Assembly (NCBI GenBank): GCA_037142615.1
Contig: JBAXAI010000011.1
Coordinates: 51,418-115,417 of the forward strand
Length of the DNA stretch: 64,000 bases
From: Spirochaetales bacterium
GTDB lineage: Bacteria > Spirochaetota > Spirochaetia > JABEVK01
Direction: 5' to 3'
Within the stretch, counting starts at the first letter, position 1, and every line of letters starts with the position of its first letter. The position numbers and the translations under genes were made by a program. The notes under the pieces are model-generated. The model saw only the letters and a list, made by a program, of their open reading frames with translations, had not been told where the DNA came from and did not search any database. This document shows positions 13,160-64,000 of the stretch, piece after piece.

Positions 13160-13203
13160 GGTTCAAGTCTCCTATGGAGGAAATGTTAAGCCCACTTGCA
13201 GTA

Positions 13204-13218
13204 TTTAACAAGGTTAAA
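13204..13218. promoter_or_regulatory. Palindromic operator candidate upstream of sqr
   Basis: TTTAAC-aag-GTTAAA lies between a possible -35 (TGGACT) and -10 (AATACT) on the minus strand. Confidence 0.4.
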
Positions 13219-13230
13219 GGTTAGTCCAGT

Positions 13231-44223: not shown

Positions 44224-44249
44224 GTACCCTCCCGGAGTAGACTCAACTG

Positions 44250-44313
44250 ACTATACCAGCGGACCCGGAAGTCACGGTGGTAAGGTTGTGGGATGGAATG
44301 GTGTAAATGTTGG
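44250..44313 (-). promoter_or_regulatory. Putative AraC-activated promoter of the leftward glycosidase operon
   Basis: Minus-strand CCAACAT and CCCACAA at a 21-bp period (44307-13, 44286-92), upstream of a -10 TATAGT. Confidence 0.5.
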
Positions 44314-44398
44314 TCTGGCCGGAAAAACAATTGGGAGTTGCTTGCTGAGTTTGCCGGGAGTGCGTAAGAGTTAGGAGAACCACCCGGGAGGAGCCCTG

Positions 44399-46726: not shown

Positions 46727-46728
46727 CC

Positions 46729-47739: not shown

Positions 47740-47766
47740 TCCCGCCAAGGAAGACGAGCACCAACC

Positions 47767-49245: not shown

Positions 49246-51848
49246 GAGCCCTCGGCCTGCGCTGCGAGTACCGGGAAAATCCCGAGGGACTGGACGTCGC
49301 CAGGCCGCGACTAAGCTGGGTGCTCGAGGCCCAGGAGCGCAACCAGGTACAGCGGGCCTACCAGGTCAGGGTGTCGGCGGCCGGGCTCCTGTGGGATTCG
49401 GGCAAACGGGAATCTTCGGAGCAGAACCAGATCGAGTACGCGGGCCCCACGCTGTTGTCGCACCAGAAATGCACCTGGTCGGTGCGGGTATGGGACAAAG
49501 CCGACCAACCCGGTCCCTGGAGTCCTCCCGCGAGCTGGAGCATGGGCATTCTGGAGCCGCAAGACTGGAAGGCTCAGTGGATCTGTGCGCCCACGGCCAC
49601 CCGACTGCCGCTGTTCCGGCAGGAGTTTGAGGTAAACGGGCCTGTTGATCGCGCCATCCTCTACGCCTGCGGCCTGGGTTTTCACGAAGTGACCGTCAAC
49701 GGGGTGATCGCCACCGACCTTTTCGAGCCGGGGTGGACCAACTACCGCAAAACCTGCCTCTACAGCGCGGTCGACGTCACGTCTCTGCTCAAGCCCAAAG
49801 GCAATACCGTGGGCGTCCTGCTCGGCAACGGGATGTACCACGTCCCCGGCGGGCGCTACGCAAAGTTCACCGGTTCTTTCGGCCAGCCCAAGGTCCTGTT
49901 GCAGTTGCACCTCGAGTACACGGATGGCACCGTGGGTGAGTTCGGCACCGACGCCGGTTGGCGTACTTCGCCGGGTGCCCTGGAGTTTTCATGCATCTAC
50001 GGCGGTGAGGATTACGATGCCAGACGCGAGTTGCCGGGGTGGGATGCGGCGGGCTTCGATGACTCGCGGTGGGAGTACGCCACCATAACGCAGGGGCCGG
50101 GCGGAAGGCTTTCTTCGGCCGCTGCGCCCCCCATCCAGGTGAAGCAGACCTTTGTGCCGGTGAGTGTGACCCGGCCCGTCGATGGGGTTCTCGTCTACGA
50201 TCTGGGCCAAAACTTCGCCGGTCGTCCGTGTCTCGAGGCTTGGGGCCCTCGGGGGGCCGTGCTGAAACTCCTACCCGGCGAACTATTGGACGAAGCGGGG
50301 TTGGTCACCCAGCGCAGTTGCGGCGGGCCAACTTGGTTCGGCTATACGCTCAAAGGCGGCGAGCTCGAACACTGGCGTCCGCGGTTCACTTACACCGGCT
50401 TCCGCTACCTGCAAGTAGAAGGAGCAGGCGACCTGGAGCTGCTGGAAATCCGGGGCGAAAGCACGCACTCCAGCGCGCAGGTAGTCGGCGCTTTTGAGTG
50501 CTCCAACCCACTGGTCAACCAGATTCACACGCTCATCCTCGCGTCGATGGAAAGCAACCTTCAAAGTGTGTTGACCGACTGCCCTCACCGCGAAAAACTG
50601 GGCTGGCTGGAAGTGACTCATCTGCTGGGCGACGCGCTGATGAAAAACTACGATCTGGCTCAGTTCTACACGAAGGTACAGCAGGATATCGCCGATGCGC
50701 AACTCGAAAACGGCCTCGTAACGGGCATCGCACCCGAAATGACCGTTTTCAGCGGTGGCTTCCGCGACTCACCCGAGTGGGGAAGTGCCTGCGTGATCAA
50801 CCCCTGGAACCTGTGGTTGACGTACGCTGACCGGCGAGTCCTGGAAGCGTCCTACGAGTCGATGTGCCGGTACGTCGACTACCTCGACACTACGGCTTTG
50901 GGCAACCTGCTTTGGCACGGCCTGGGCGACTGGTACGACGTTGGTCCCGGCGAGCCAGGAGGGTCCAAGCTGACCCCAAAAGGGCTGACAGCCTCGGCTA
51001 TTTACTTTCAGGACCTCACCATCCTGCGGGAAGTTGCCCTCCTTTTGGGAAAACCAAGAGACGCTGAGGCCTTCCAAACGCGGGCCCTGGCCGTGAAGCT
51101 CGCGTTTCAGGCGACCTTCTTCGACCGGGTGGCCGGCAGCTATGGCGGGACAAGCCAAACCGCCAATTCCATGCCCCTGGTTCTCGGTCTGGCCGACGAA
51201 ACCGAGCGCCCAAAGGTACTCGAGAGTCTTCTCGACTTGCTGCGCAAAGGTGGCGGACAAGTCACGGCCGGAGACGTCGGTTTTTCCTACCTCGTAAGCG
51301 CCTTGACCGAGGCGGAAGCGGCCGACAGCCTGTACCAACTGATGTGTCAGACCGCCGGCCCGGGCTACGCGCGCCAACTCGAGCGCGGCGCCACCTCGCT
51401 CACCGAGGCTTGGGACGCCAATCCTGCCTCCTCGCAGAACCATTGCATGCTTGGCCATGCCGACGCCTGGCTCTACCGCGGTCTGGCAGGTATCCGGATC
51501 GATGAGTCAGCGCCGGGCTATCGTCACTTTGTGCTTAGGCCGCAGTTTCCTGCGGGCTTGACTTGGGTGAAGGCAACCTACGAGTCGATCCGGGGTACAA
51601 TTCTGAGCCACTGGCGCCAACAAGACGGCTACACCACCTGGAAACTCCAGATTCCCCCGAACACCACGGCCACTGTCTGCTTTCCTGGGGCCGAGCCAGC
51701 CGGCATCATGGAAGGCACAAGACCGCTTGGCGATGTCGAGTCGGTCCGAGACGTGTTGGCTGGCGCCGCCTTTGTTCAGTGTGAGCTGAGTTCCGGTGAG
51801 TTCTGCTTCGTGTGGCCCCACCAGGCCGGCCCCAGGGTCAGCCTGTGA
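49242..51848 (+). CDS. GH78 alpha-L-rhamnosidase
   Basis: ATGA overlap; PRLSW, DLGQNFAG, FTYTGFRY, TDCPHREKLGWL, GDW, TSLTEAW, SQNHCMLG. Confidence 0.92.
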   Translation: MRALGLRCEYRENPEGLDVARPRLSWVLEAQERNQVQRAYQVRVSAAGLLWDSGKRESSEQNQIEYAGPTLLSHQKCTWSVRVWDKADQPGPWSPPASWSMGILEPQDWKAQWICAPTATRLPLFRQEFEVNGPVDRAILYACGLGFHEVTVNGVIATDLFEPGWTNYRKTCLYSAVDVTSLLKPKGNTVGVLLGNGMYHVPGGRYAKFTGSFGQPKVLLQLHLEYTDGTVGEFGTDAGWRTSPGALEFSCIYGGEDYDARRELPGWDAAGFDDSRWEYATITQGPGGRLSSAAAPPIQVKQTFVPVSVTRPVDGVLVYDLGQNFAGRPCLEAWGPRGAVLKLLPGELLDEAGLVTQRSCGGPTWFGYTLKGGELEHWRPRFTYTGFRYLQVEGAGDLELLEIRGESTHSSAQVVGAFECSNPLVNQIHTLILASMESNLQSVLTDCPHREKLGWLEVTHLLGDALMKNYDLAQFYTKVQQDIADAQLENGLVTGIAPEMTVFSGGFRDSPEWGSACVINPWNLWLTYADRRVLEASYESMCRYVDYLDTTALGNLLWHGLGDWYDVGPGEPGGSKLTPKGLTASAIYFQDLTILREVALLLGKPRDAEAFQTRALAVKLAFQATFFDRVAGSYGGTSQTANSMPLVLGLADETERPKVLESLLDLLRKGGGQVTAGDVGFSYLVSALTEAEAADSLYQLMCQTAGPGYARQLERGATSLTEAWDANPASSQNHCMLGHADAWLYRGLAGIRIDESAPGYRHFVLRPQFPAGLTWVKATYESIRGTILSHWRQQDGYTTWKLQIPPNTTATVCFPGAEPAGIMEGTRPLGDVESVRDVLAGAAFVQCELSSGEFCFVWPHQAGPRVSL

Positions 51849-53152
51849 TTCTGGAACCCATCCGTCGGGCCCTGAAGCTCGATCACCTCAAGAGCGAAGA
51901 CCGAAACGCCTCGTTCCTGATCGCCGAAATCTTCTGGTCCTCGATTCTCGGGTGTGCCGCGAGCTTTTTCGCCGCCTTTGCCTTGCGTTTGGGCGCGAGC
52001 AATACCGATATCGGACTGCTCAGTTCCATTCCTCCGTTGCTGGTCATCCTCGTTGCTCTGCCAGCCGGGCGTTTTTTGCAGGGGGTTCACAATCCGCGCA
52101 AGTGGATTCTCGGGGGGCTCGCGGTGCACCGGGCGCTCTACACGTTTATCTTCCTGGTGCCATTTTTTGCGGGGCTGGGCCTTCCACTGGGCACCATCGC
52201 CGTGTGGATCTTCATCCTGATCGGTCTACCGGGCCATCTGTTCAACATCGGTTTTGTGTCGCTGTTGGCCGATGTGGTGAGCGAGCAACGCAGGGCTGCC
52301 GTATTTTCGGCCCGAGGCATCGTCAACAACGCCGCCTCGGCGCTGCTCATTTTCGCGTTTGGGGTGTGGCTCAAGGAAGCCCCCTTTCCCTGGAGCTATC
52401 AGGCCATGTTCGGGTTCGGCATTGTCACGTCGTTCATCAGTGTCCGTTACCTGGCCCGAATCGAGGTGCCCGCCCGCGCTCCCCATCCCCCGACCCCACT
52501 CTCGCTGTCCGACGAACTACGCAAGATCAAGTTCGCCTTGGTGCACAACGCAGCGTTCCGTTCGCTCGTTCGCAACACCTTCTTGCAGTCGCTGATGCTC
52601 TGGATGTCGGGGCCCCTTTTTATTCTCTACTATATCAAGACCTGTGGTGCGGATGAGGGCTGGCTTGGCGTCAACGGGACGGTTTCGGGCCTGGTGACGA
52701 TCGCCTCGTTCGTGCTGTGGCGACGCTGGATGCACCGGTTCGGCGAGAGCACCATTCTGAAGGTCACCATGGTCCTTGCAGGCACCTTCCCGCTGCTGGT
52801 GGGTGCCACCACCTCGCTGACCTTGATTGTCGCGGCCAATGCCCTCAATGCCTTTGCCAACGCCGGTGTCGGCCTGAGCCATTTCAATACCCTGCTCAAG
52901 GTGATGCCCGAAAAAAGCCGCACCGAGTACACCGCCTATTGGTCAATCCTGATGAATGCCGGGGCGTTCGCCGCACCCATGCTCGGCGTGCTGTTGGCCG
53001 GGTGGTTCGGCCTGGCACCGACCCTGTTGTTCTGCGGCGCCGTTTCTACCGTCGGTGCGCTCAGCTTCACGCTTTGGCCGGTGCGCGTCCCTTCGAGCGA
53101 TACAAACAAAATCACCAGCGTTGCCAACAATCCCCCGAAGGCGGGTTGGTGA
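51845..53152 (+). CDS. MFS transporter
   Basis: GTGA overlap; about 12 TM segments with LGAS...IGL and MPEKSR..Y motifs. Confidence 0.8.
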   Translation: MILEPIRRALKLDHLKSEDRNASFLIAEIFWSSILGCAASFFAAFALRLGASNTDIGLLSSIPPLLVILVALPAGRFLQGVHNPRKWILGGLAVHRALYTFIFLVPFFAGLGLPLGTIAVWIFILIGLPGHLFNIGFVSLLADVVSEQRRAAVFSARGIVNNAASALLIFAFGVWLKEAPFPWSYQAMFGFGIVTSFISVRYLARIEVPARAPHPPTPLSLSDELRKIKFALVHNAAFRSLVRNTFLQSLMLWMSGPLFILYYIKTCGADEGWLGVNGTVSGLVTIASFVLWRRWMHRFGESTILKVTMVLAGTFPLLVGATTSLTLIVAANALNAFANAGVGLSHFNTLLKVMPEKSRTEYTAYWSILMNAGAFAAPMLGVLLAGWFGLAPTLLFCGAVSTVGALSFTLWPVRVPSSDTNKITSVANNPPKAGW

Positions 53153-53189
53153 GGCGGTTGTAAACTCAAGGCAGTACAAGGAGTCACAC

Positions 53190-54521
53190 ATGCCCAAAGT
53201 CACGTTTATCGGCGCCGGAAGCACGGTGTTCGCCAAGAACATTCTCGGAGACTGCTTGTCTTCACCTCAGATCAGCGCCAACCTCGAGCTCGCCCTGTAC
53301 GACATCGACGGCGTCAGGCTTGCCGAGTCGCTCCAAATGGTCGAAACCCTCAACAGGAACCTTGTTGGTGGCAGGGCCCGCATCAAGGCGTACCTGGGCA
53401 CCGAAAACCGCAAAGAGGCCCTGCGCGGCGCCCATTACGTGGTCAACGCCATCCAGGTGGGCGGTTACGAGCCTTCCACCGTGATCGACTTCGAGATTCC
53501 CAAGAAGTACGGCTTGCGCCAAACCATCGCCGACACCCTGGGAATCGGGGGCCTGTTCCGGGCCCTTCGGACAATCCCTGTCTTGATGGACCTTGCCGAT
53601 GACATCCTGGAGGTTTGTCCCGAGGTCTGGTTCCTGAACTATAGCAATCCGATGGCGATGCTCACGATGGCCCTGTTGCGCCGGGGCATCAAGACCGTTG
53701 GCCTGTGCCACAGCGTGCAGGTGTGCGCCGACCACTTGCTCAGCTCGCTCGATCTGCCCACCGACAATCTGCAGTGGAAAATCGCCGGCATCAATCACAT
53801 GGCGTGGCTGCTCGAGCTCTCGCGCGGGGGCGTCGATCTTTACCCCGAGGTCAAGCGCCGGGCGGCGGCCAAGAACGCGGCAGCCCTGGCCGAGGGTGGA
53901 ACCAAACACGACGACATGGTTCGCTTTGAAATGCTGCGGCGCTTTGGCTACTACATCACAGAGTCGTCAGAGCACAACGCCGAGTACACGCCCTACTGGA
54001 TCAAGTCGAAGTACCCGCAGCTGGTCGATCAGTACAACATTCCTCTGGATGAGTACCCCCGTCGATGCCGCGAACAGATCACCCGCTGGGCCCAAATGCG
54101 TGACGATATCCTGATGGACCACACCCTGACTCACCAGCGGAGTCTCGAATACGGCTCGCACATCATCGAGGCCATCGAGACCGACGTGCCCTATCGGATC
54201 GGTGGCAATGTTCTCAACGACGGGCTCATCACCAACCTGCCCAGCGAAGCGGTTGTCGAGGTGGCCTGCTTGGTCGACCGCAACGGGGTGCAACCCACGG
54301 TGGTGGGCAAACTTCCGGCGCACCTGGCAGCCCTCAATCTCACCAACATCAACCTGCAGATTGTCGGTGTCGAGGCGGCCCTGAGCCGAAGCCGCGAAGG
54401 CATCTACCACGCCGCCTACCTCGACCCCCACACCAGCGCCGAACTCAGCTTGGGCGACATCCAACTGCTGTGTGATGACTTGATCGCGGCGCACGGAGAC
54501 TGGCTGCCGCAGTACCGGTAG
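53190..54521 (+). CDS. melA: GH4 NAD+-dependent alpha-galactosidase
   Basis: FIGAGSTVF, DFEIPKKYGLRQTIADTLGIGG, NYSNPM, GLCHSVQ, GINHMAW, TESSEH.AEY. Confidence 0.9.
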   Translation: MPKVTFIGAGSTVFAKNILGDCLSSPQISANLELALYDIDGVRLAESLQMVETLNRNLVGGRARIKAYLGTENRKEALRGAHYVVNAIQVGGYEPSTVIDFEIPKKYGLRQTIADTLGIGGLFRALRTIPVLMDLADDILEVCPEVWFLNYSNPMAMLTMALLRRGIKTVGLCHSVQVCADHLLSSLDLPTDNLQWKIAGINHMAWLLELSRGGVDLYPEVKRRAAAKNAAALAEGGTKHDDMVRFEMLRRFGYYITESSEHNAEYTPYWIKSKYPQLVDQYNIPLDEYPRRCREQITRWAQMRDDILMDHTLTHQRSLEYGSHIIEAIETDVPYRIGGNVLNDGLITNLPSEAVVEVACLVDRNGVQPTVVGKLPAHLAALNLTNINLQIVGVEAALSRSREGIYHAAYLDPHTSAELSLGDIQLLCDDLIAAHGDWLPQYR

Positions 54522-54547: not shown

Positions 54548-55726
54548 TGGCTAGGGAAACCTGTCATCAAGGTCTTGTCGGGAATGCGGCGCTCAGGCAA
54601 GAGCACCCTCCTGGACTTGCTGGCTCGCCACCTGAAGGAACAGGGGCGCCCCGCCCCGCTCAAGGTCAATCTGGAAGAGATGGTTCACGGCGACCTCGGC
54701 GATGCCCAGGCGCTGTACCGTTACTGCAAGTCGGTCTTCCCATCGCCCGATTTGAGCCAGGTTCTCATGCTGGATGAGGTCCAGGAAGTTCCGGGCTGGG
54801 AGCGGTGCGTTAACTCCCTGCTTGCCGAAGGCTGGTGTGATCTTGTGGTCACCGGGTCCAATGCCCACCTTTTCTCGGCGGGACTCGCAACACTTCTTTC
54901 TGGGCGGTTTGTGATCCTTCCCGTCTACCCACTTTCTTTTCAGGAGTACTGCTCGTTTCGGGCTTGCACGGCCTCCGAGGCCGCCTTCCTGGATTGGCTT
55001 CGTTGGGGTGGCTTGCCCGGCCTCCATCGGCTGGGGTACCAGGAGCTGACCCAGGATTCCCCCGAACTGGGGCGTGACTACCTCAAGTCGATTCTCGATA
55101 CGGTCGTGCTCAAAGACGTGATTGAGCGCCATCCCGTCCGTGACGCGGCGTTCTTGGCGCAATTGCTGCGGTTTGTCATGGGCAATCTGGGGAACTTGGT
55201 GTCGGCCAAGTCGATCGCCGATTGGGTCAAGTCAGAACGACGAACCGTGTCGGTCGAGACCGTGCAAAACTACTTGGCGCACTTGGGCGATGCGCAACTG
55301 GTTTACCCGGTTCAGCGCTTTGACATCAAGGGTAAAGCGCTGTTGGCGTATCAAGAAAAGGTCTTCGTTGCCGACCTTGGCCTCAGGCATGCCTTGGTGC
55401 CGTGGACTCTGGGCGACCTTGGCGGGATGCTCGAAAACGTCGTCTACTTGGAACTGATCCGCCGGGGGATGCGGGTCACGGTCGGCAAACTCGGAGACCG
55501 CGAGATTGACTTCGTGGCTGAACAGGGCGAAGCCCGGCTGTACCTTCAAGTGGCCTACCTGCTGGCCACTCCCGAAACCATCGAGCGTGAGTTTCAGCCG
55601 CTCGAAGACATCCGTGATCACTTCCCCAAGCTGGTGCTGTCGATGGACCGCTTCAACCAAGGAGGCCGCAACGGCGTGCTGCACCGGTATCTGCCGGAAT
55701 GGTTGGTAACTCGAGGGTCCGTTTGA
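54548..55726 (+). CDS. AAA_14 ATPase with DUF4143-type C-terminus, apparently 5'-truncated
   Basis: GKPVIKVL-GMRRSGKST, LDEVQ, TGSNA, LENVVYLEL, EIDF, YLQV. The first start codon (TTG 54575) falls after the strand that precedes Walker A. Confidence 0.75.
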   Translation, partial: WLGKPVIKVLSGMRRSGKSTLLDLLARHLKEQGRPAPLKVNLEEMVHGDLGDAQALYRYCKSVFPSPDLSQVLMLDEVQEVPGWERCVNSLLAEGWCDLVVTGSNAHLFSAGLATLLSGRFVILPVYPLSFQEYCSFRACTASEAAFLDWLRWGGLPGLHRLGYQELTQDSPELGRDYLKSILDTVVLKDVIERHPVRDAAFLAQLLRFVMGNLGNLVSAKSIADWVKSERRTVSVETVQNYLAHLGDAQLVYPVQRFDIKGKALLAYQEKVFVADLGLRHALVPWTLGDLGGMLENVVYLELIRRGMRVTVGKLGDREIDFVAEQGEARLYLQVAYLLATPETIEREFQPLEDIRDHFPKLVLSMDRFNQGGRNGVLHRYLPEWLVTRGSV

Positions 55727-55863: not shown

Positions 55864-57927
55864 CTAAGTCAGCATGTCGTCCAGGAACTCCGACGTGTTC
55901 CCTCCACTGGAAAGGTGGAGGTAATCGCGGGCTCGGGTACAGGCAACGTAGAGCAAGTTGCGTTCGGTGGTGTAAATCTCGTCGAGGTCTGCGGTGTCAG
56001 AGGCCGAGCCGATCCTCTCGTCGGAGGGAAGAACACCTTCGTCACAGGCCATGACGGCGACGCCTCGGAACTCGAGTCCCTTGGCCATGTGCATCGTCAC
56101 GATGGAAAGCCGCCCGGGCATCGGCAGGGCGTGTTCATCCAGAACGACGAAAGGAAGTCCCGCTTCGGCAGCAACCTCGTGGGCTCGCGAAAACTCTGCG
56201 GAAGACCGCACAATGAGCGCGACTTCGTGCGGTTTGCAGCCCAGTGCCCAAAGATCCTTCAGCCACCCTACGACAGCCCTGCACTCCTCTGGCCGGCTGG
56301 AGCACTTTCGCGTGATCGGGAGCGGCCCATTGAACACCGAAACCGTGGTGCTACGGTCGTCCACGTTGCCATCGACGTCGCTCACCGACTTTCCCAGCAA
56401 ACGGTCGGCCTGCCGGCGAATCTGGTGCGACGTACGGTAGTTCACTCTGAGGGTTCGGCAGCGCCCTCGCAGGTCGACTCCGGCTGCCTTCCAAGAGAAG
56501 GGAGTCCGAAAAATCCTCTGGGCCGTATCCCCGGCGAAGAAGAGTCGGTTGGGCACATTGCCCCCGAAAGCAGCAAGAAACCGAAGTTGAGGCAGGCTGA
56601 TATCCTGGGCTTCATCGACCACCACAAAATCAAAAGGAGGGTTTTTGCGCCCGGCCACTTGGCGTTTCAGGACGTTGAACAGGCCGGCCTCTGTAACCTG
56701 CTTGTTTCGAGACAAAGCCTCGTGGACAGCCTCGAAGACTTGCCAGAGGGCACGACGTTGCACCTCGGGAAGTCTGGTCTTTCGTCCCAAACGGACCACA
56801 TCACGGTAGGACTCCCACGTGTCCAAGTCCCAGGCCTCGACGATTTCCGTCCATTCGGATTTCAGAAAAGAGTGTGTGAACCGATTGTCGGCGAATTCTT
56901 GCGCGGCATGGGCCAGAACAGGGTCAAAAGCCGCATCAGACAGAACGTCGAGGCTTGCCGCCGACGTGTCGAGCATTCGCATCCCGAACGAAAGCAGCGA
57001 GCGGACTTCAATCCTTTCGGCCAGGCGGGGCTCACCGGCGATCAAACGGTGAAGTTTGTCTTTCAAAGAATGCGCTAGGGCCTCGGTGAAGGTCGCCAGC
57101 AGAACCCTCGAGTCCGGGTTGCATCGTGCCAGATGCACGGCCCTGTGGAGGGCCACGATTGTTTTTCCGGTGCCCGAGGAACCGGAAACGCGAAAGGGAC
57201 CGGTCAGATCGGCACTGACGAGGGCAAGCTGGTCTGGGTGCAGGAAGGTGATCCACTTTTCCCAAGGGGCATCGAGTGCTTTCTGGAGGGCTTCCGAGTC
57301 CGCCAGGACTTGAAAACGTCGCTGAGCATCGGGGTGCTCGTACGGGTCCACAGGAACGGTGCCCGCCTGTTTCGCCGTCGGCCATCCTCCCACAGCGACT
57401 TCGAGTAGTGCCTCTGCTGCCTCAGCCGGCAGGTGGTCGGCGAGTTGCAGAACGGAGTCCTCGGTTGCTCCTCGAACGTCCGCAAGCCATTCGACGGGCA
57501 CCCCCCAAGAGAGGAGGTCGTCGTCGCTGCACTTTCGAAAAAGCAGTGGTTTTGAGGCCACTGCTTCCACATATTTGGGAATCACGATCTCTTGAACGGT
57601 CTCGCGAACTTCCACCAACTGGGCGGCCCGAGTCTGCGGGTGCACCTCGAGTTTTCGCCGCTCGGCCCATTCGTAGGCTTTGTCATGGTGATCCACGTAG
57701 CAGAGCATAAGGCTCTGCTCCGTCCGGTGGACGATGATCCGCAGATCGCTCGATACGCGGACAGACCAGAACGCCTTGTCGCGTGCCCGTTCAAGCTTGT
57801 GAAACTGGTGACCGGGATTTGCCGGGTTCACCTGGAGGTCAAAGGCGGTCGTCTTGGAGACTTTCTGCTCGTCGGAAGTGAGTTTGGCGAGGCTGTCGGT
57901 AAAGGTGGAGGAGAGGAGGAAGGTCAT
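55864..57927 (-). CDS. SF1 UvrD-like helicase with an N-terminal RelE/ParE-like domain
   Basis: N-terminal F..SL.KL...P..PG..FHKL...WSVRV..DLRII...VDHHD.AY; helicase motifs GSSGTGKT, DEAQD, GD..QRI, NYRT, HMAKGLEF, LYVACTRAR. Confidence 0.85.
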   Translation of the reverse strand: MTFLLSSTFTDSLAKLTSDEQKVSKTTAFDLQVNPANPGHQFHKLERARDKAFWSVRVSSDLRIIVHRTEQSLMLCYVDHHDKAYEWAERRKLEVHPQTRAAQLVEVRETVQEIVIPKYVEAVASKPLLFRKCSDDDLLSWGVPVEWLADVRGATEDSVLQLADHLPAEAAEALLEVAVGGWPTAKQAGTVPVDPYEHPDAQRRFQVLADSEALQKALDAPWEKWITFLHPDQLALVSADLTGPFRVSGSSGTGKTIVALHRAVHLARCNPDSRVLLATFTEALAHSLKDKLHRLIAGEPRLAERIEVRSLLSFGMRMLDTSAASLDVLSDAAFDPVLAHAAQEFADNRFTHSFLKSEWTEIVEAWDLDTWESYRDVVRLGRKTRLPEVQRRALWQVFEAVHEALSRNKQVTEAGLFNVLKRQVAGRKNPPFDFVVVDEAQDISLPQLRFLAAFGGNVPNRLFFAGDTAQRIFRTPFSWKAAGVDLRGRCRTLRVNYRTSHQIRRQADRLLGKSVSDVDGNVDDRSTTVSVFNGPLPITRKCSSRPEECRAVVGWLKDLWALGCKPHEVALIVRSSAEFSRAHEVAAEAGLPFVVLDEHALPMPGRLSIVTMHMAKGLEFRGVAVMACDEGVLPSDERIGSASDTADLDEIYTTERNLLYVACTRARDYLHLSSGGNTSEFLDDMLT

Positions 57928-58578
57928 TCAGGGACCCGAGACTAGTCGGAGGAGTCCGTTACGGAATTTTTGGAAACTGGGCGATGGGTTAGACTCGATC
58001 GAGATCAGAGGAGTTATCCGCTCGGCCCATTCATGCTTGAGTTCTCCTGAACGCGGCCATCCGTCCGCCTTCACTTGGGCACGACCGCCCACAACGACAG
58101 CGTCAGCCAAGGTTTCCCAGGTATCGCAGACGGAATCGGGAACATAGGAGTTCAGCACCTGCCGTTTTGCACTCGGGTATGCCGCGAGCACTGCGGCCTG
58201 ATCACTGAGATACCACGCTTCGACCTCCTCGATGGCGAGGCGAAACAGAACCCTTACCCGACGAGTTGTGAGGGCTGACAGGGACTGAAGCTCCTGCAAA
58301 AACGCACGGCAGTCGTGTCGATCCGTATCAACGATCACAACCACGGCATCTATTCCAGGAGTCTTGTCATAGCCACCAAGCAGCCTCGGAAGGTTGTCGA
58401 GGAGAATGCGTTTCGCTGCATCGGTCGCGTTCGACATGCCCTTGGGAATAGTCCCGACGCCCTTGTATTTGTGGATCCTCCACGTATGGGGCATGGACTC
58501 CTGCCCGATGATCCGAGGAATGAGGTTTTCGACCGCCCTCGCCCCCGAACTGTCTTCGACAAGGAACTCAATATGCAT
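57928..58578 (-). CDS. DUF4276-family TOPRIM-like protein
   Basis: FLVED.S, VIVDTD..DC, IEEVEAWYL.D, N.SPSF. Confidence 0.75.
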   Translation of the reverse strand: MHIEFLVEDSSGARAVENLIPRIIGQESMPHTWRIHKYKGVGTIPKGMSNATDAAKRILLDNLPRLLGGYDKTPGIDAVVVIVDTDRHDCRAFLQELQSLSALTTRRVRVLFRLAIEEVEAWYLSDQAAVLAAYPSAKRQVLNSYVPDSVCDTWETLADAVVVGGRAQVKADGWPRSGELKHEWAERITPLISIESNPSPSFQKFRNGLLRLVSGP

Positions 58579-58580
58579 GG

Positions 58581-59810
58581 CTACGTCCTGTCGAGGTAGT
58601 CGCTGTACCAGAGACTTCCGAGGGGAAGGCCCTCTGCGACGAGGTTCTTGACCACCTCAATTTCGGCCACCCGGCGAATCGTGGAAAATCCGTCTGCTCC
58701 TTTCTCAAGAATCCAGACATTTTCAGGCGACAACCCGTCCACAAAGTACGGCTGATGCGTCGTAACGAAAATCTGAGGGGAGTTCTTGCGGCCCGTGGCC
58801 TGCTGTCGGAACTCACGGGCCAGAGAATCCAAGAGTTTATGGTAGAGCCCATTTTCGGGCTCTTCGATGCAGATGAACGGAGCAGGATCGGGATCTTCGA
58901 GTAACAAGAGATAGGCGAGCATCTTCAAAGTGCCGTCGGACATCTGCGGCGCAAGGAAGGGGTCGCTGAAGTCGCCCCCGTTGAAGCCAAGCAAGACTCG
59001 CTTGTCCTTGGTCACCTCAAACTGGATCGAGGTGATGCCCGGAATGCGCGCGGCGATTCGATGAAGAATGTCATTGAATTTTTTGGGGTGTTCGACCTTC
59101 ATGTACTGAACCACATTGGCAATGTTGTCGCCACGGATATTGAGGTGTTTTTGGGGGCCAGATACCGGAATAGTCCGTGCGGCATCGGGGTAGAAGTACG
59201 AGAGATACCACCCCTTGAGGAAGTCCCGGAACAGCTTGATCCGAGGGTGTTCCTTGAGCGTCCCCAGCGTGGCAATGCCAAGTTGTTTTGTGTCGGTGAG
59301 CTCAACGGCCAGTTTGGAGGTGTCTTCCTCCCCTTCAGACTCTACCGCTGAGTCGCCCGCCCACACGTGTCCCTTGCCCCGGGACAGCCTAAGGAACGGG
59401 TAAGGACGACCGTAGTCCTGGCCTTTGCGACGCTGTTTCAGAATCTCGGACTCGACAAAGGGTCGTCCGGCCGAGTCAACGTTGATGGCGACTTCATAGG
59501 TGATCGGCCGCTCACTTCTGGACTCGCGGTAGTAAACCTCAAACTGGATGGGCCCTTGGCAATCTTTCGATCGCAGCCAATCGAATCCACCCCTCTGCTT
59601 GGCGTTGCAGGCGGTCTCAATGTCAAAAGTGATGCAGTCCGAAAGAAACCCAAAGGCGTCAAACAACGAACTCTTGCCTACCCCGTTCTTTCCGATGACG
59701 ACGGTAAATGGCGTCAGGGAAATCGCATCCTGAGTGTTGGAAAGTCGACCGAGAGAGATGTCTTTCAGGGCACGGTAGTTCTGGACTCGAAAGCCCTCAA
59801 TCAATGCCAT
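58581..59810 (-). CDS. AAA_21-type ABC ATPase
   Basis: VQNYRAL, GKNGVGKS, MSDGT signature, IEEPENGL, TTHQP. Confidence 0.9.
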   Translation of the reverse strand: MALIEGFRVQNYRALKDISLGRLSNTQDAISLTPFTVVIGKNGVGKSSLFDAFGFLSDCITFDIETACNAKQRGGFDWLRSKDCQGPIQFEVYYRESRSERPITYEVAINVDSAGRPFVESEILKQRRKGQDYGRPYPFLRLSRGKGHVWAGDSAVESEGEEDTSKLAVELTDTKQLGIATLGTLKEHPRIKLFRDFLKGWYLSYFYPDAARTIPVSGPQKHLNIRGDNIANVVQYMKVEHPKKFNDILHRIAARIPGITSIQFEVTKDKRVLLGFNGGDFSDPFLAPQMSDGTLKMLAYLLLLEDPDPAPFICIEEPENGLYHKLLDSLAREFRQQATGRKNSPQIFVTTHQPYFVDGLSPENVWILEKGADGFSTIRRVAEIEVVKNLVAEGLPLGSLWYSDYLDRT

Positions 59811-59834
59811 CGTTCACCACCTGTTGAACTCCCA

Positions 59835-62585
59835 TTATACCCTAAACACCTTCATCACCTCGTCGCCAAGATGATTGATCACTTTCACGGCGATTCGTCC
59901 GTTCTTCGGCTTCTCGAACGGCCGCGACACGGCGCTGTTCAGCGTGGCCCAGGCGTCGGCGTTGATTTCGGCCTTGAGCGTGGTCTTGAGTGATCCGTAG
60001 GGGTCGTTGGCCCCCAGGAAGTACGCGTGGCGGACGAAGAATGACTCCTCGTTGTAGTCGGTGTCGATGAACCAACAAGCGATCCCGTCGGGACCATCGG
60101 AGCGGACGTCGCCGCTGCGGGGGTCGAACACGTCGACACCTTTGACCTCGATGGTCACCTGGTTGTTACCCGCTTCCTGAACTTCGATGTCAGGCTCGCC
60201 GAAGATGACGAACAGGTTGCCCTGCCCGTTGTTTCGGAGGTCTTCGGCCATGTGCAGGTCGGCGTTCATGCGGGCCTTGAGCACGGGGATGCGGCCGAGC
60301 TTGTGGAACTCGGTACTATGGGCGTCGTAGTTGAACGCGCAGGCGATGAGCACGTCGAAGTTGGCTTCGGCAGCCTCGCGGGCAGCTTCGACCAGGTCGG
60401 GGCGGCTGACGGTGCCGAACTCCGGCCCCAGGAAGATGGCGGCGCGCTTGTCGTCGTAGCGGCCTTCGGCGCAGATGAGGCGACCGGGCCACGGGGTCAG
60501 CGACGTGAAGGTGATCTTGTCGGCCTTGTCGGGTTGCTGAACGCCGGCTTTGAGCAGGTTATCGAGGATGAGCCCGGCGAAGTCGTGCACGTCGAAACCG
60601 GGCGCCGGCTCTTTGAGTTCGTCGATCAGTTCGTCGTTTTCGTCGACCGCGAAGGTGCGGTGAGGCGACAGACTCTCGACGGTGAACGGTCCTGCGACCC
60701 TCACTTTCTTCTTGTCTTCGTAGGGCTTGTCGTACAGGTACTCGTACTCCGCCTTGGCGGCGATGCTGGCGTCGATCTCTTTCTGGCGGGCGATGCGGGC
60801 CTTCCACCATTCGGGAGCGACGTCGCGGGGAATCTCCCACTCTTCCCAGTTTTTGCCCAGGGACTGGTTCAGTTGAGCACGCAGGGGCTCGAGGATGGCC
60901 TGCCATTTGTCCCAGATGACATCGATTTCGGCGTTATTCGCAATGCTTTTCAGGGTGATGTGGGGCACGCGCTCGTACACAAAACCGTGCTTGAGGTTGC
61001 GGTAGGTGGGTTTGCTGCTCAGAGGAGTCCGGGTGACCTCGCTCTCCTTGGCTTGCCCTTCGGGGCTGTCGGCCATCAGGTAGTACGGGTAACGTGCTCC
61101 CATGATTCGGGCCCGGGCGAGGGCCAAGGCGACGCGACTGGTATCGATGGTGATCCACCGGCGGCCCCACTGTTCGGCGACATAGGCTGTCGTTCCAGAC
61201 CCACAGGTCGGGTCGAGGACCAGGTCGCCAGGGTCAGAGGCAAGTAACATGCACCGTTGGATGACGCGGACATTGGTTTGGACAACATAGACTTTGTCCG
61301 CCCCAATTGTTCCTCCCGTATCCTCCCAAGAACTGGTAAGTGGAAAGTAAGGCGACTCGTCAAAATATCGCACCAGACTAAGCGACCGTCCCCCTCCGTG
61401 AAGACGGGTCGCTCTTGCGGCTCGGACCATTCCTGGCTCAGTTGTGCTCCATCCTCGGGTACCGGCGGGTCGATATGTGTCCCCTCGGAAAATGAACGGA
61501 AAACCCATGGCCGAAGCGTCGCCAGCTTCTCTTCCCTGTCGCTGTGAGGTCGCATCGCCAAGTCGGGCGATGCGGACGCCCGGTGACTCGAGCTTTTGAC
61601 CTGAAGAAAGGTAGTCTGTGAGGCGCGTGCGAGCTGTGTCTACTTCGACGATTTGCCAAGGACCAGGGTCGGAGACATCGAACGGGCGCTCAATGAACAA
61701 AGGTCGATACTTCGTGTTCTGGTGATCCTTTGCAAACCAAAGAACGTAGTTCTTGGGATTGGAGAGAAACTCAGACGTAGAGCCTGACGTGGCGTGGTAC
61801 CCAATTTGACTTACATAGTTCTCATCGCCGAAGACTTCCTCGAGCAGGCACCTCACCCGATGAACATTCTCTTCCCCAATCTGCACAAAGATACTGCCGC
61901 TGTCGGTCAGCAAATCCCGCGCCACGGTCAGTCGGTCCCGCAGGTATGTCAAATAGCTGTGGATGCCGTCGCGCCAGGTGTCGCGGAAGGCTTTCACCTG
62001 CTCGGGCTCGCGGGTAATGTGCTCCAGGTTGCCGTCTTTCACGTCGCGGCTCGTGGTGCTCCACTGGAAGTTGCTGTTGAACTTGATGCCGTACGGCGGG
62101 TCGAAGTAGATGCACTGCACCTTGCCCCGCAGGCCCTCGCGCTCGGCCAGGCTGGCCATCACCTGCAGGCTGTCGCCCAGAATCATCCGGTTGGTCCAGT
62201 GGGCATCGTGCTGGTAGAACTCGGTCTTGGCGCCCTCGCTCGGCAACCCATTGAAGTCAGCAAACAGATCGAACTGGTCCTCAGGCTTTTGTCCCTTCTG
62301 GGTCTGCTTCACCAGGTCATCGATGAGCACCTTGGGGTGGACTTTCTCTTGGATGTACAGCGGCGGCGCGTTGACCACCAGGTCGCTCCAGTCTTGTTCG
62401 TCCTTTCCGCGCCACACGAGCTGAGGGTCTAGGTCGCGGTTTCGTCGGTCGTAGGCCACCCGGATGGGTGTCTTGGTGTCGGACTCGACCATGGCCTGGT
62501 ATTCGGCGGTCGGGATGTTTTTGCGCGTCTGCTCGGTGTGGGTGAAAGTCGAGATCGGCTTGGGGGTCGGGTCAGTCTTGGCCAT
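59835..62585 (-). CDS. Type III R-M-like beta-class adenine DNA methyltransferase with a long C-terminal extension
   Basis: NRMILGDSL, YFDPPYG (motif IV) precedes DPTCGSGTT (motif I); C-terminal WFIDTDY and IAVKVINHLGDE. Confidence 0.88.
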   Translation of the reverse strand: MAKTDPTPKPISTFTHTEQTRKNIPTAEYQAMVESDTKTPIRVAYDRRNRDLDPQLVWRGKDEQDWSDLVVNAPPLYIQEKVHPKVLIDDLVKQTQKGQKPEDQFDLFADFNGLPSEGAKTEFYQHDAHWTNRMILGDSLQVMASLAEREGLRGKVQCIYFDPPYGIKFNSNFQWSTTSRDVKDGNLEHITREPEQVKAFRDTWRDGIHSYLTYLRDRLTVARDLLTDSGSIFVQIGEENVHRVRCLLEEVFGDENYVSQIGYHATSGSTSEFLSNPKNYVLWFAKDHQNTKYRPLFIERPFDVSDPGPWQIVEVDTARTRLTDYLSSGQKLESPGVRIARLGDATSQRQGREAGDASAMGFPFIFRGDTYRPAGTRGWSTTEPGMVRAARATRLHGGGRSLSLVRYFDESPYFPLTSSWEDTGGTIGADKVYVVQTNVRVIQRCMLLASDPGDLVLDPTCGSGTTAYVAEQWGRRWITIDTSRVALALARARIMGARYPYYLMADSPEGQAKESEVTRTPLSSKPTYRNLKHGFVYERVPHITLKSIANNAEIDVIWDKWQAILEPLRAQLNQSLGKNWEEWEIPRDVAPEWWKARIARQKEIDASIAAKAEYEYLYDKPYEDKKKVRVAGPFTVESLSPHRTFAVDENDELIDELKEPAPGFDVHDFAGLILDNLLKAGVQQPDKADKITFTSLTPWPGRLICAEGRYDDKRAAIFLGPEFGTVSRPDLVEAAREAAEANFDVLIACAFNYDAHSTEFHKLGRIPVLKARMNADLHMAEDLRNNGQGNLFVIFGEPDIEVQEAGNNQVTIEVKGVDVFDPRSGDVRSDGPDGIACWFIDTDYNEESFFVRHAYFLGANDPYGSLKTTLKAEINADAWATLNSAVSRPFEKPKNGRIAVKVINHLGDEVMKVFRV

Positions 62586-62636
62586 GATTTTTCCTGCAAC
62601 AATCCTGTAATTTCTTCTTGGGAATAAAGATAGACG

Positions 62637-62664
62637 ATTGTATTGCATCTAAATGCAATACAAT
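62637..62664. repeat. Perfect 12-bp inverted repeat upstream of the methyltransferase gene
   Basis: ATTGTATTGCAT-ctaa-ATGCAATACAAT. Confidence 0.8.
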
Positions 62665-62674
62665 GCAATGGGTG

Positions 62675-64000
62675 CTATTCACGGTGACACCCCTCAGTCA
62701 TAGGCCCAGGGTACCAAAGTCCCGCGTTGGTATTCCCATGCGAGTGAATCTTTTCCTCTTCACGTAACTCGCGGAGGAGTGTTTGAACTGCCCCTCGGTC
62801 CAAATAGGGAACAACCTGCCTCAACTCTTTCAACGGACTTCCCTGCTGAGAAGTTTTTTTGATGTGAGCTTGAAGGAGGGCTTTGTGGGTCTCGCGGTCG
62901 AGGCCAACTTTACGGGTATGAACTCCAGCTTTCCCAATAGCCGAAAACAGCTTTCGAGCGAGAATCCAGGGGTTGTCCTTGCTGTGTGGAACTTTTTCAA
63001 TCAGGCCCTCTTCCAGAAGCTTACGGGCTACCGGTTCTAATCGGTCCGAAAGCACCGTCCCGGTGTACACGGCCTGGATGACGATAAAATCCTCGGTGGA
63101 AAAGCTTCGCAATCTTTCATCGCCGATTTTTTCAAGAACTCTTAGGAACTCTGGTTGTTGAATCGTTCCATGGAGGGTAAGGCACACATTCCACTTGTCG
63201 GTATTCCGGAAGTCCGGGTCGCCCTTGCTCTCGCGAATGCAGGATTCGAAAATCCGGTTCATCCCCTGCCCGGACCGCTCAACCAGACCACACTTGGCCA
63301 GAATATCGGCCACACGCCGATTCCGAGGGTTTTGTTTCCATAGGATGTTCTCCACGGTCACGCCTACGGGAAAACCTCCAGGACTGCTAATCTCAATGCG
63401 CTCTGGGTATTGGCGGACAAAGGCAGACTCTCCCGAACGATAGTCGCGATGACTCACCGCATTGAGGATTGCTTCGCGGATGGCCCCTTCGTTGAAGGTC
63501 TTGATGTCCCAAATGAAGAGCCCATCCTGGTAGTGCTGAACCGTGTTGCGAAGCTCAATCAGGTCCCAGAGCTTGTCGTAGAAACTGAAAAACCCCTGCC
63601 GGAATTCAACCCTTTGTTGGGCTGGACCAGTCAGATCGTTGGCTCGGTATTCGAAAATCACTTCGGCCTGACCGAGAAGGCGACCTAACGACAACCGTTT
63701 TCCAAACAGAATCAGGGCTGCATAGGTCATTTGCTCACCGAAGGCCAACTCGGCATCTGCCAGGAGTTGGACCCTGTTCACGTCCTTGAGAGCAGCGTTC
63801 CCCGACTTCTTGATCCAACGACGACGAAACTCCTCGATGCACTCGGTGTCCAAGTCGTCCCAGGTGGCCTCGCGGCAAATCTCTGCCGAATAATCCGGGC
63901 CTGCCTCGCTGAGGATGGACTGAATTTGGTCGATGTTCATCGCCACCAAAGACTCGCCGGAGCGCATCAGATAGCGACCTTCCACGTGAACGGGACGACC
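62675..64000 (-). CDS. Schlafen/AlbA_2 + HATPase_c_4-type ATP-binding protein with C-terminal HTH; 5' end lies outside the window
   Basis: Frame is open to base 64000; YLMRSGES, AALILFG, REAILNAVSHRDY, SPGGFP, PRN, GLVERSGQG. Confidence 0.8.
   Translation of the reverse strand, partial: GRPVHVEGRYLMRSGESLVAMNIDQIQSILSEAGPDYSAEICREATWDDLDTECIEEFRRRWIKKSGNAALKDVNRVQLLADAELAFGEQMTYAALILFGKRLSLGRLLGQAEVIFEYRANDLTGPAQQRVEFRQGFFSFYDKLWDLIELRNTVQHYQDGLFIWDIKTFNEGAIREAILNAVSHRDYRSGESAFVRQYPERIEISSPGGFPVGVTVENILWKQNPRNRRVADILAKCGLVERSGQGMNRIFESCIRESKGDPDFRNTDKWNVCLTLHGTIQQPEFLRVLEKIGDERLRSFSTEDFIVIQAVYTGTVLSDRLEPVARKLLEEGLIEKVPHSKDNPWILARKLFSAIGKAGVHTRKVGLDRETHKALLQAHIKKTSQQGSPLKELRQVVPYLDRGAVQTLLRELREEEKIHSHGNTNAGLWYPGPMTEGCHRE

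Follow-up and report, generated by a model that had tools for sequence, protein, structure and literature searches.

The genes for an ABC-type ATPase and a DUF4276 protein that separate a DNA methyltransferase gene (mod) from a helicase gene in the analysed stretch of DNA (64,000 nucleotides, hereafter the window) are HEC-01, a catalogued two-gene candidate defence cassette, and they lie as guests within a widespread, unnamed three-gene restriction-modification (R-M) operon. A first-pass annotation had joined methylase, ATPase, DUF4276 protein and helicase into one candidate new defence system on account of their tight spacing and intact catalytic motifs. The ORF coordinates confirmed that the minus strand of the window carries four co-oriented ORFs with intergenic gaps of 24, 2 and 0 nt, each named motif was present in the translation of its gene, and the family matches in Pfam and PADLOC agreed with all four domain calls (Table 1). 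The connection of a defence locus with a Type III-like methylase was likewise upheld, while the restriction subunit gene, res, had been out of sight, since the window comprises the terminal 64 kb of contig C11, whose end cuts the operon. We consider it highly likely that the locus is a Type III-like R-M operon composed of res, mod and a gene for an ArmD-like helicase, and that it has two guest slots, with a Schlafen/AlbA_2-HATPase_c_4 gene in slot 1 and the self-contained HEC-01 in slot 2.

Table 1. Features of the operon within the window.
Feature	Coordinates	Strand	Description
Slot-1 gene (between res and mod)	62675..64000	-	Schlafen/AlbA_2 + HATPase_c_4; 5' end lost at contig end
Perfect inverted repeat	62637..62664	.	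12-bp arms, 4-nt loop
mod	59835..62585	-	beta-class N6/N4 DNA methyltransferase, Type III kind
HEC-01A	58581..59810	-	409 aa; ABC-type (AAA_21/AAA_15) ATPase; guest gene 1, slot 2
HEC-01B	57928..58578	-	216 aa; DUF4276 TOPRIM-like putative nuclease; guest gene 2, slot 2
ArmD-like helicase	55864..57927	-	687 aa; third conserved gene of res-mod-helicase operon

The longest ORF of mod starts at 62648 (59835..62648, 937 aa); since homologues align from about residue 19-22, the start is probably the ATG at 62585. The inverted repeat lies within the 89 nt that separate the slot-1 gene from this likely start, has 12 pairs of which 3 are G-C in a terminator-like scan, and could serve as an operator or form a terminator-like hairpin. 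Mod matched N6_N4_Mtase of Pfam (4.8e-29) and the PADLOC model MTase_III PDLC03632 (1370 bits), and its translation contains the motifs DPPY (183-186) and DPTCGSGT (479-486). As in Type III methyltransferases, DPPY (motif IV) precedes the FxGxG motif I with a variable target-recognition region between them; among 16 sequences Mod was hypervariable only in this region, at about residues 275-450, and conserved elsewhere, and its closest solved relatives were the Type III Mod chains 6k0w and EcoP15I 4zcf. The conserved C-terminal extension of ~400 aa is predicted, with moderate confidence, to adopt a PD-(D/E)xK-like fold (Z 10.1 to NucS) followed by a beta-sandwich. This nuclease-like fold came from a VIA-align wide search with a model whose pLDDT was only 66, and Foldseek returned no match for the C-terminal model at E <= 0.001. 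A predicted complex of the extension (418 aa) with the N-terminal 230 aa of the helicase had a score of 0.05 (mark 0.32) and was informative neither way. Relatives of Mod were present in 6 of 301 genomes of the same phylum, this genome included, the others at 46-55% identity, which is too few for a co-occurrence test.

The res gene was identified as ORF 293..3397 of contig C66, which encodes ResIII and RE_endonuc domains and scored 1298 bits on the NCBIfam BPTD_3080 family (NF046055, cut-off 800). The first ~90 residues of the slot-1 gene were matched on the same contig at 290..36 on the minus strand, and because this gene is split across two contigs we infer that C66 abuts the end of the window, which would place res next to the slot-1 gene and mod. 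No sequence overlap between C11 and C66 was found, and ARAGORN reported no tRNA on C66, though its last bases resemble the 3' half of a tRNA. Given this adjacency, the operon would contain a Res subunit with an SF2 ATPase and a C-terminal endonuclease, as expected of Type III systems. Here, "Type III" denotes a likeness and not a proven class, since Res of C66 barely matched the PADLOC Type III REase models (23 bits) and the order res-mod is the reverse of that in the classical mod-res pair on contig C2 of this genome. The slot-1 gene matched HATPase_c_4 of Pfam (2e-16), and a full-length homologue with 63% identity in comparison locus L049, combining SLFN_AlbA_2 and HATPase_c_4, is located directly upstream of Mod. 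A phmmer search over the 160 comparison loci recovered 12 ORFs related to it, of which about 10 lie in the slot between res and mod. Contig C7 carries another complete, paralogous operon, whose three-gene guest is a different one and whose Mod is 79% identical to that of the operon described here.

The helicase consists of a predicted RelE/YoeB-fold domain at residues 1-95 (57643..57927), a helical linker and a UvrD-type SF1 core at residues 230-687 (55867..57240), the latter matching UvrD-helicase (2.4e-18) and UvrD_C (3.8e-17) of Pfam. The extra toxin-like N-terminus pointed out in the first-pass annotation is real: its predicted fold matched YoeB/RelE with TM 0.69-0.78, which backs the weak match to HigB-like_toxin (E 0.0032, below the Pfam cut-off). 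The domain reached no gathering cut-off of Pfam (22.2 bits vs 27). A profile of the domain matched only YoeB among PDB sequences (E = 1), and this alignment served residue mapping only, the RelE claim being carried by the fold match. R65 and H83 of YoeB align to R63 and H81 of the helicase, and with R63, H81 and Y85 conserved the domain may be an RNase. The Walker motif GSSGTGKT is located at 249-256, and the helicase motifs were invariant in 21 sequences. The combination of RelE-like and UvrD domains is already described as ArmD of ARMADA type II. Compared to an E. coli ArmD orthologue, whose gene has 97.8% DNA identity to the chromosomal gene of EDL933, the helicase showed 32% identity (E 1e-97, residues 5-682 on 10-701), with Walker A K255 aligned to ArmD K266 and Walker B D438 to D454. 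According to the accessible part of the ARMADA report, ArmD is needed for ARMADA II defence, which is lost in a K266A mutant (PMC12458937). The accessible text further reports that loss of armD in EDL933 had a smaller effect on post-infection growth than loss of armA-C, and that ARMADA acts directly and not abortively; on this account, a suicidal function of the RelE-like domain is less plausible.

The ATPase matched the PADLOC HEC-01A model PDLC04182 nearly end to end (2e-183, 608 bits, residues 1-408 on 1-402 of 406 model positions), and the DUF4276 protein, encoded after a gap of 2 nt, matched the HEC-01B model PDLC04205 (1.1e-88, residues 1-211), with all 12 of its PADLOC matches being HEC-01 models. 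In Pfam, the ATPase matched AAA_21 (1.1e-38) and the second protein matched DUF4276 as its sole family (1.5e-09), a family placed in the TOPRIM superfamily (PMC12065111). The translations contain the Walker motif GKNGVGKS at 40-47 of the ATPase and the acidic residues E8/D9, D84-T85-D86 (DTD, 84-86) and E117/E118/E120 of the DUF4276 protein. This pair is already listed in PADLOC-DB as Hma-embedded candidate 01 from the preprint of Payne et al. (2024; 10.1101/2024.01.29.577857). As far as the available portion of that preprint goes, HEC-01 protected E. coli from none of the phages tested, and its role in defence is therefore putative. HEC-01 is independent of the res-mod-helicase operon, as a Pseudomonas plasmid of the conjugative kind carries the pair by itself, with neither methylase nor helicase (60% identity), and a Meiothermus plasmid carries it within a Type I R-M operon (41% identity), in both cases with no UvrD neighbour. 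Conversely, no DUF4276 relative occurred in 160 comparison loci with the methylase and/or the helicase, and relatives of HEC-01A, even weak ones, occupied the slot in only 3 of the 160.

The linkage between res, mod and the helicase gene is conserved in other genomes while the contents of the slots vary. In the helicase-anchored set, the best 80 of at least 593 confirmed loci in species genomes, 56 loci had at least 3 kb upstream of the helicase, and Mod was encoded upstream on the same strand in 50 of them, directly next to the helicase gene in 13 and with an insert in between in 37. Two further loci of these best 80 of at least 593 had only the 3' tip of Mod at the locus edge, and in the 4 of 56 that had no Mod upstream, 3 kept Mod/Res remnants. 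Res preceded Mod in 34 of 35 loci of the same selection, the 35th having the 3' part of Res at its edge. In the Mod-anchored set, the best 80 of at least 581 confirmed metagenome loci, Res was upstream in 47 of 47, and among the 34 whose downstream DNA reached 6 kb or more a full helicase was encoded in 26, a partial one in 1 and none in 7, indicating that the R-M core can exist without the helicase. Thus, the expected co-occurrence of the four genes was borne out for the methylase and the helicase, which were nearly always together and accompanied by Res, and failed for the ATPase/DUF4276 pair, with no DUF4276 relative in the 160 loci. A Mantel test on 54 complete loci gave r 0.71 for res-helicase, 0.53 for modC-helicase and 0.49 for res-modC, values that are possibly inflated by near-identical loci (minimum distance 0.0). 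Slot 2 was vacant in about a quarter of the comparison loci, with the helicase start then only 5-20 nt from the Mod stop. The slot contained 177 ORFs over 83 loci, of which 164 were co-oriented, and its guests were varied and mostly of defence type, including IetAS, AbiP2, SIR2-HerA, GmrSD and ABC ATPases, with ABC-ATPase cassettes among the commonest (AriA/mad3-like models in 7 of 142 ORFs, AbiLi in 6).

These observations bear directly on how the four genes should be grouped. Their common strand, tight spacing and intact motifs would agree with a single new system of methylase, ABC ATPase, DUF4276 protein and RelE-UvrD helicase; however, the DUF4276 protein has no relative in any of the 160 loci, the same slot is empty or filled by many unrelated cassettes elsewhere, and HEC-01 pairs occur elsewhere, both inside a Type I R-M operon and, with neither methylase nor helicase, on a conjugative plasmid, so that we regard such a system as exceedingly improbable. 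We also judged it very improbable that ATPase, TOPRIM protein and UvrD helicase cooperate as a split Gabija-like unit with the methylase as a mere neighbour. Both the match of the helicase to GajB models (at best 2.2e-25, 87 bits) and the description of ArmD as GajB-like in the consulted part of its report (PMC12458937) point in that direction, as does a weak match of the ATPase to GajA (1.3e-9), but the GajB models are matched partially and far more weakly than the ArmD orthologue, the helicase travels with Res and Mod and not with ATPase-TOPRIM pairs, and HEC-01 pairs elsewhere have no UvrD neighbour. The RelE-UvrD gene might instead be an independent single-gene defence that often lands downstream of a methylase and has no part in R-M. 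This is improbable given that Mod was missing upstream in only 4 of 56 loci, 3 of them with Mod/Res remnants (best 80 of at least 593), that divergence of the helicase tracks that of Res, that the helicase follows Mod so closely when the slot is empty and that ArmD was required for defence by plasmid-borne ARMADA in the part of the study at hand (PMC12458937), although the helicase is missing in 7 of 34 Mod-anchored loci (best 80 of at least 581), its homologues serve the very different ARMADA system and, in the excerpt available, armD loss in EDL933 was milder than loss of armA-C.

A further question is whether HEC-01 acts as a guard of the host R-M system in the manner of PrrC/EcoprrI, being silent while R-M is intact and triggered by anti-restriction proteins. 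The accessible text of the Payne preprint argues for embedded systems in general that an ATPase-nuclease may back up R-M as a layered defence, and with PrrC/EcoprrI it offers a precedent and an argument for embedded ABC ATPases (10.1101/2024.01.29.577857); the abundance of ABC-ATPase cassettes among slot-2 guests is in keeping with this, and co-orientation with gaps of 2 and 24 nt suggests co-transcription. On the other hand, the 160 loci revealed no conserved association between this HEC-01 subtype and this family of R-M systems, the same pair turns up within a Type I R-M operon and by itself on a plasmid, HEC-01 has no known trigger, and the same portion of the preprint reports no protection of E. 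coli. A guard function is thus rather unlikely, and we favour a res-mod-helicase host operon in which HEC-01 is a self-contained guest.

In such an operon, Mod would methylate a short, asymmetric sequence that its variable region specifies, and unmethylated DNA would be cut by Res in the fashion of EcoP15I. The ArmD-like protein may join the R-M core in acting on a DNA intermediate, for example ends made by Res or stalled complexes, using ATP through Walker A K255 and possibly cleaving RNA with its RelE-like domain. HEC-01A and HEC-01B would form an ATPase-nuclease complex similar to MAD3-MAD4 that senses a phage cue independently and is probably transcribed together with the host operon. More tentatively, and with somewhat less than even chances, the operon could represent a distinct, very widespread and unnamed three-component restriction system, in which the RelE-fold/UvrD protein is integral through RNA cleavage or sensing of DNA ends, Mod contributes a nuclease-like domain, the slots are a standing landing site that co-expresses immune guests, and HEC-01 fires if the host R-M is blocked.

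The analysis is corrective in that an apparently new four-gene system resolves into catalogued HEC-01 inside another operon. Judging by this locus, tight spacing alone says little about where one system ends and the next begins within a defence island. More interest attaches to the host operon, which ties an ArmD-type protein to an ordinary-looking Type III-like R-M core, so that the role of this protein could be studied in a simpler context of three genes. The two slots extend "guilt by embedding", for which the hosts named in the available part of Payne et al. are Hma, BREX, DISARM and Type I R-M (10.1101/2024.01.29.577857), to a Type III-like host, and they bring to light many guest genes yet to be characterised, among them the three genes hosted by the operon copy on C7. 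A res-mod-ArmD-like operon was not found described in the literature, although supplementary tables (e.g., Table S2 of PMC12458937, or those of Payne et al., 2024) might list it; "BPTD_3080" was not found in the literature searched, and among the papers listed for RelE-UvrD proteins with methyltransferases or Type III restriction, and for ARMADA, only the two ARMADA preprints were of relevance.

Among known systems, Type III R-M of the EcoP15I type is resembled in the solved relatives of Mod, in a Res with ResIII and endonuclease domains that passes NF046055 and in the variable target-recognition region. Systems of Type III need ATP and two inversely oriented unmethylated sites for cleavage, and their Mod subunits hemimethylate the target. 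The present operon differs in its res-mod order, the nuclease-like C-terminal extension of Mod, a third conserved gene, two guest slots and the poor fit of Res to the PADLOC REase_III models. The likeness to ARMADA type II lies in the full-length ArmD architecture of RelE-like N-terminus, helical linker and UvrD core, as given in the accessible parts of its descriptions (PMC12458937; 10.1101/2025.09.22.677730), and in an ArmD-type gene being the last of a helicase-nuclease/methylase operon. The partners differ, being a BPTD_3080-type Res and a beta-class Type III-like Mod here, whereas none of ArmA (Swi2/Snf2), ArmB (PglX-like methylase) and ArmC (YprA-like helicase, DUF1998) is present at the locus. 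Gabija and PARIS share the logic of ABC ATPase and TOPRIM, and the UvrD-type partner resembles GajB; however, GajA is an ATPase-TOPRIM fusion whereas the genes are separate here, the GajA match covers only residues 5-56, and the helicase does not co-occur with ATPase-TOPRIM pairs in the 160 loci. PARIS differs in that AriA models score well below HEC-01A and in that the partner is DUF4276 and not the DUF4435 of AriB, two domains that the PARIS paper lists separately. Hma, composed of the helicase HmaA, the m5C methyltransferase HmaB and the ATPase HmaC, was rejected as an identity of the host operon because mod is of the N6/N4 type, and no Hma model was among the best 25 PADLOC matches listed for mod or helicase.

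MADS is similar in having a separate ABC-type ATPase and a DUF4276/TOPRIM-like protein, MAD3 and MAD4, which the accessible part of the MADS report describes as a 2:2 ATPase with DNA-cleaving activity (PMC13662399). D81/E83 and E119/E121 of MAD4, as given in the same part, are similar to the acidic residues of HEC-01B in position only, without alignment (PMC13662399), and as sequence searches gave no solved-structure match for HEC-01A or HEC-01B the comparison with MAD3-MAD4 rests on family names and residue positions. Differences from MADS are that the ATPase scores 86 bits on NCBIfam MAD3 (NF047739, cut-off 420), that HEC-01B matches no mad4 model and that the eight-gene mad1-8 operon is absent at the locus. 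As for HEC-01 itself, both genes match its models over their full length and, like the pair in the preprint, lie side by side on one strand within a defence operon of several genes, with the difference that the host is Hma in the preprint and a Type III-like res-mod-helicase operon here.

The ORF listing confirmed the four co-oriented genes of the first-pass annotation, separated in order by 24, 2 and 0 nt (see table), and the motifs DPPY, GKNGVGKS, DTD and GSSGTGKT were each found in the translations. Homologues of the methylase (Mod) begin to align at about residue 19-22 of the longest ORF, so its likely start is the ATG at 62585, in agreement with the start proposed originally. Mod matched Pfam N6_N4_Mtase and the PADLOC model MTase_III (PDLC03632, 1370 bits), the ATPase Pfam AAA_21/AAA_15 and PADLOC HEC-01A (2e-183), the third protein Pfam DUF4276 and PADLOC HEC-01B (1.1e-88), and the helicase Pfam UvrD-helicase and UvrD_C and, weakly, HigB-like, with only partial GajB matches in PADLOC (best 87 bits). 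A perfect inverted repeat with 12-bp arms at 62637..62664, in the spacer ahead of mod, may serve as an operator controlling the operon, or as a hairpin that terminates the upstream gene's transcript.

Coordinates of the operon genes in the window and of related features on other contigs of the same genome
Feature	Location	Strand	Remark
Methylase, longest ORF	window 59835..62648	minus	ORF listing
Mod C-terminal extension, about 400 aa, residues 520-937	window 59835..61091		conserved
ATPase ORF	window 58581..59810	minus	ORF listing
DUF4276 ORF	window 57928..58578	minus	ORF listing
Helicase ORF	window 55864..57927	minus	ORF listing
Slot-1 gene upstream of methylase, HATPase_c_4	window 62675..64000		5' part beyond contig end
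Res, intact ORF	C66 293..3397	minus	1298 bits on NF046055
Second complete res-mod-helicase operon	C7 66449..76778 (L082 6447..16929)

The helicase belongs to a large family whose members are highly conserved (about 60% identity over many phyla); this family anchored one set of comparison loci, the best 80 of at least 593 confirmed in a scan of species genomes; the second set, anchored on Mod, comprised 80 of at least 581 loci confirmed in a metagenome scan. Within the best 80 helicase-anchored loci, 56 had at least 3 kb of upstream sequence, and a methylase of the window's type stood upstream on the same strand in 50 of them, adjoining the helicase in 13 and set apart by an insert in 37. At two further loci (L028 and L046) the 3' tip of the methylase alone was visible at the locus edge, and at four (L013, L041, L053, and L078) it was missing, with L013 retaining a 55-residue Mod remnant and L041 and L053 retaining fragments of Res. 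This Res, a protein of about 1020 aa upstream of the methylase, has ResIII and RE_endonuc domains and scores above the cut-off of the NCBIfam model NF046055, named 'BPTD_3080 family restriction endonuclease'. It was found in 34 of the 35 helicase-anchored loci with room for it, the 35th showing its 3' part at the edge, and upstream of Mod in the Mod-anchored loci (47/47). Where Mod-anchored loci had at least 6 kb downstream (n = 34), the helicase was full-length in 26, partial in one and absent in seven. Taken together, the counts from both sets indicate that the helicase almost never occurs without Res-Mod, and that about one fifth of Res-Mod pairs occur without the helicase. In one of the latter (L119), a 692-aa type IA topoisomerase (Toprim and Topoisom_bac) is encoded at 11463..13541, downstream of Mod with three other genes between. 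In Mantel tests on the 54 loci where res, mod and helicase are all complete, helicase divergence correlated with Res divergence (r 0.71) and with divergence of the Mod C-terminus (r 0.53) at least as strongly as Res did with Mod (r 0.49), values possibly raised by near-identical loci. The trio was also found on RefSeq-annotated plasmids from Pseudomonas amygdali and from Rhizobium leguminosarum, where the annotations read 'BPTD_3080 family restriction endonuclease', 'site-specific DNA-methyltransferase' and 'UvrD-helicase domain-containing protein' or "3'-5' exonuclease".

The gap between mod and helicase (slot 2) is a slot for guest genes. Of the 66 helicase-anchored loci showing the 3' end of Mod, 20 had a gap no longer than 123 nt and the remaining 46 one of 346-9878 nt; in the Mod-anchored set, 12 of 50 loci had a gap of up to 150 nt and 38 one of 238-5206 nt. 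Counting ORFs of 90 aa or longer, slot 2 held 177 over 83 loci, 164 of them co-oriented, and the guests sampled included IetA/IetS, AbiP2, SIR2-HerA, a CapP/RmrA-like peptidase with DUF4411, GmrSD, a SIR2 fusion, an AEP-reverse transcriptase, SMC-like and AAA_21 ATPases, and DUF429. The PADLOC scan covered 142 of these 177 ORFs, and the models matched most often were AriA/mad3-type ABC ATPases (7), AbiLi (6) and IetA (6), followed by IetS (5), AbiP2 (4) and PDC-M25A (4). Four metagenome loci (L095, L098, L103, and L114) carried the same slot-2 insert of 613-614 nt, which in L095 encodes a protein of about 204 aa with a weak DUF429 match. The gap between res and mod (slot 1) was likewise occupied, in 19 of 47 loci from the Mod-anchored set and in 14 of 34 from the helicase-anchored set. 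HATPase_c_4 proteins resembling the window's gene upstream of mod recur there (L035, L048, L049, L075, L096, L121, L126, L136, L143, and L154), with N-termini that vary between an AlbA_2/Schlafen, a DUF4062 and a cytidine-deaminase domain.

The first-pass annotation had read the methylase, ATPase, DUF4276 protein and helicase as one new four-part system. Among the ORFs of the 160 comparison loci, no relative of the DUF4276 protein was found, and relatives of the ATPase were limited to three weak ones in slot 2 and one elsewhere; the four genes thus do not co-occur in these loci, an outcome that the first-pass annotation had itself named as refuting its reading, and the set is not a new system. 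Instead, the ATPase and DUF4276 protein are the catalogued candidate HEC-01, which the available part of the preprint describes as a gene pair embedded in Hma systems, an ABC ATPase plus a TOPRIM-like protein (Payne et al., 2024); DUF4276 has been assigned to the TOPRIM superfamily (PMC12065111). One relative of the pair (60% identity) lies alone among the transfer genes of a conjugative plasmid from Pseudomonas, and another (41% identity), whose partner is annotated 'DUF4276 family protein', lies within a Type I R-M operon of a Meiothermus plasmid. These other settings show that the pair is a self-contained mobile module. HEC-01A/B would be an ATPase-nuclease pair co-transcribed with its host operon; that it guards the host R-M system, as PrrC does, we consider unlikely. 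In E. coli, HEC-01 gave no protection against any phage tested, as reported in the available part of that preprint (Payne et al., 2024).

The window is the final 64 kb of contig C11, and an intact Res gene is found on contig C66 (5470 nt). Just downstream of this Res, positions 290..36 match a homologue from the slot-1 protein family over its residues 1-90, and the truncated slot-1 gene of the window matches it over residues 107-536. No sequence overlap between C11 and C66 was found, and from this split of one gene we infer that C66 almost certainly continues the window. Upstream of res, C66 encodes a DDE transposase (DDE_Tnp_1, DUF772; L081 3727..5470), and the terminal bases of the contig are similar to a tRNA 3' half (CAT anticodon loop and T arm), in which ARAGORN calls no tRNA; the island may lie beside a tRNA gene. 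G+C is 0.60-0.67 at 44-50 kb and drops to 0.52-0.60 across the operon. On the plus strand, convergent with the operon, an AAA_14 and DUF4143 ATPase (54575..55726) matches the PADLOC single-gene candidate PDC-S01 (1.1e-124), giving the island one more candidate defence gene. The island is bordered at 38827..54521 by a long run of glycoside-hydrolase genes (GH95, two alpha-L-fucosidases, rhamnosidases, GH4) together with an MFS transporter, apparently a housekeeping part of the chromosome devoted to glycan use.

The second operon, on contig C7, consists of Res, Mod (79% identical), three guests and helicase (77% identical). The 220-aa and 199-aa guests matched no Pfam or PADLOC family, and the 381-aa guest matched the metallo-beta-lactamase fold only weakly, making the three an uncharacterised cassette. 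Contig C2 carries a classical mod-res pair (35% and 33% identity) without such a helicase.

The N-terminal 95 residues of the helicase are predicted to fold (pLDDT 76-93) into a model that matches YoeB, RelE and YafQ structures (Foldseek E 5e-4 to 1e-2; target-normalised TM 0.64-0.78). Pfam HigB-like_toxin weakly matched 32 of 33 family members (best 3.4e-6), the window's helicase scoring 22.2 bits, under the cut-off of 27. A weak profile alignment places YoeB positions 65 and 83, which we take to be its catalytic residues, on the invariant helicase residues R63 and H81. The SF1 motifs were all invariant across 21 helicase sequences. Moreover, the protein aligned over its full length (32% identity, E 1e-97) with the terminal gene of an operon of ARMADA II layout on an E. 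coli plasmid, a gene 97.8% identical in DNA to one on the chromosome of EDL933; a Thermus plasmid offers one more ARMADA-like context. In this alignment K255 corresponds to K266 and D438 to D454. According to the available part of the source, ArmD is required for defence, with full loss in K266A and partial loss in D454N (PMC12458937), and in the second ARMADA preprint, on strain EDL933, the armD mutant was less affected than the armA-C mutants. The full-length alignment, together with the linkage to Res-Mod, argues that the helicase is an ArmD homologue working with a partner set unlike that of ARMADA.

Mod is conserved throughout except for residues ~275-450, between motif IV and motif I, a position that fits a target-recognition domain, as expected. 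The model of its C-terminal extension has a pLDDT of only 66 and gave no Foldseek match at E <= 0.001. A wide structural search aligned model residues 171-278 to PD-(D/E)xK nucleases (NucS, Z 10.1, rmsd 2.7, 98 aligned; AF1548, Z 9.1; LlaBIII nuclease domain, Z 8.0), and the final ~120 residues matched beta-sandwich domains. We treat a PD-(D/E)xK nuclease-like fold followed by a beta-sandwich as a lead rather than a finding.

The data establish the gene families, their linkage, the slots and HEC-01 as independent of the operon; beyond them, Mod would mark host DNA and Res would cut unmarked DNA, with the ArmD-like protein probably using ATP on a DNA intermediate of the Res-Mod reaction, while the RelE-like domain may cleave RNA. 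Since ARMADA is reported not to act abortively, a suicide role for this domain is doubtful.

As for known systems, we found no description of the res-mod-ArmD-like operon in the paper listings and main-text passages available, the Res family is already named by NCBI (BPTD_3080, NF046055), and embedding of defence systems as a phenomenon has been published, as the available part of the preprint shows (Payne et al., 2024). Membership of the window's ATPase in MADS was ruled out by its MAD3 score (86 bits, cut-off 420). The closest studied relative of the ATPase/DUF4276 pair is the MAD3-MAD4 module of MADS, which, according to the available part of the source, is a 2:2 ATPase-nuclease complex that cuts plasmid DNA (PMC13662399).
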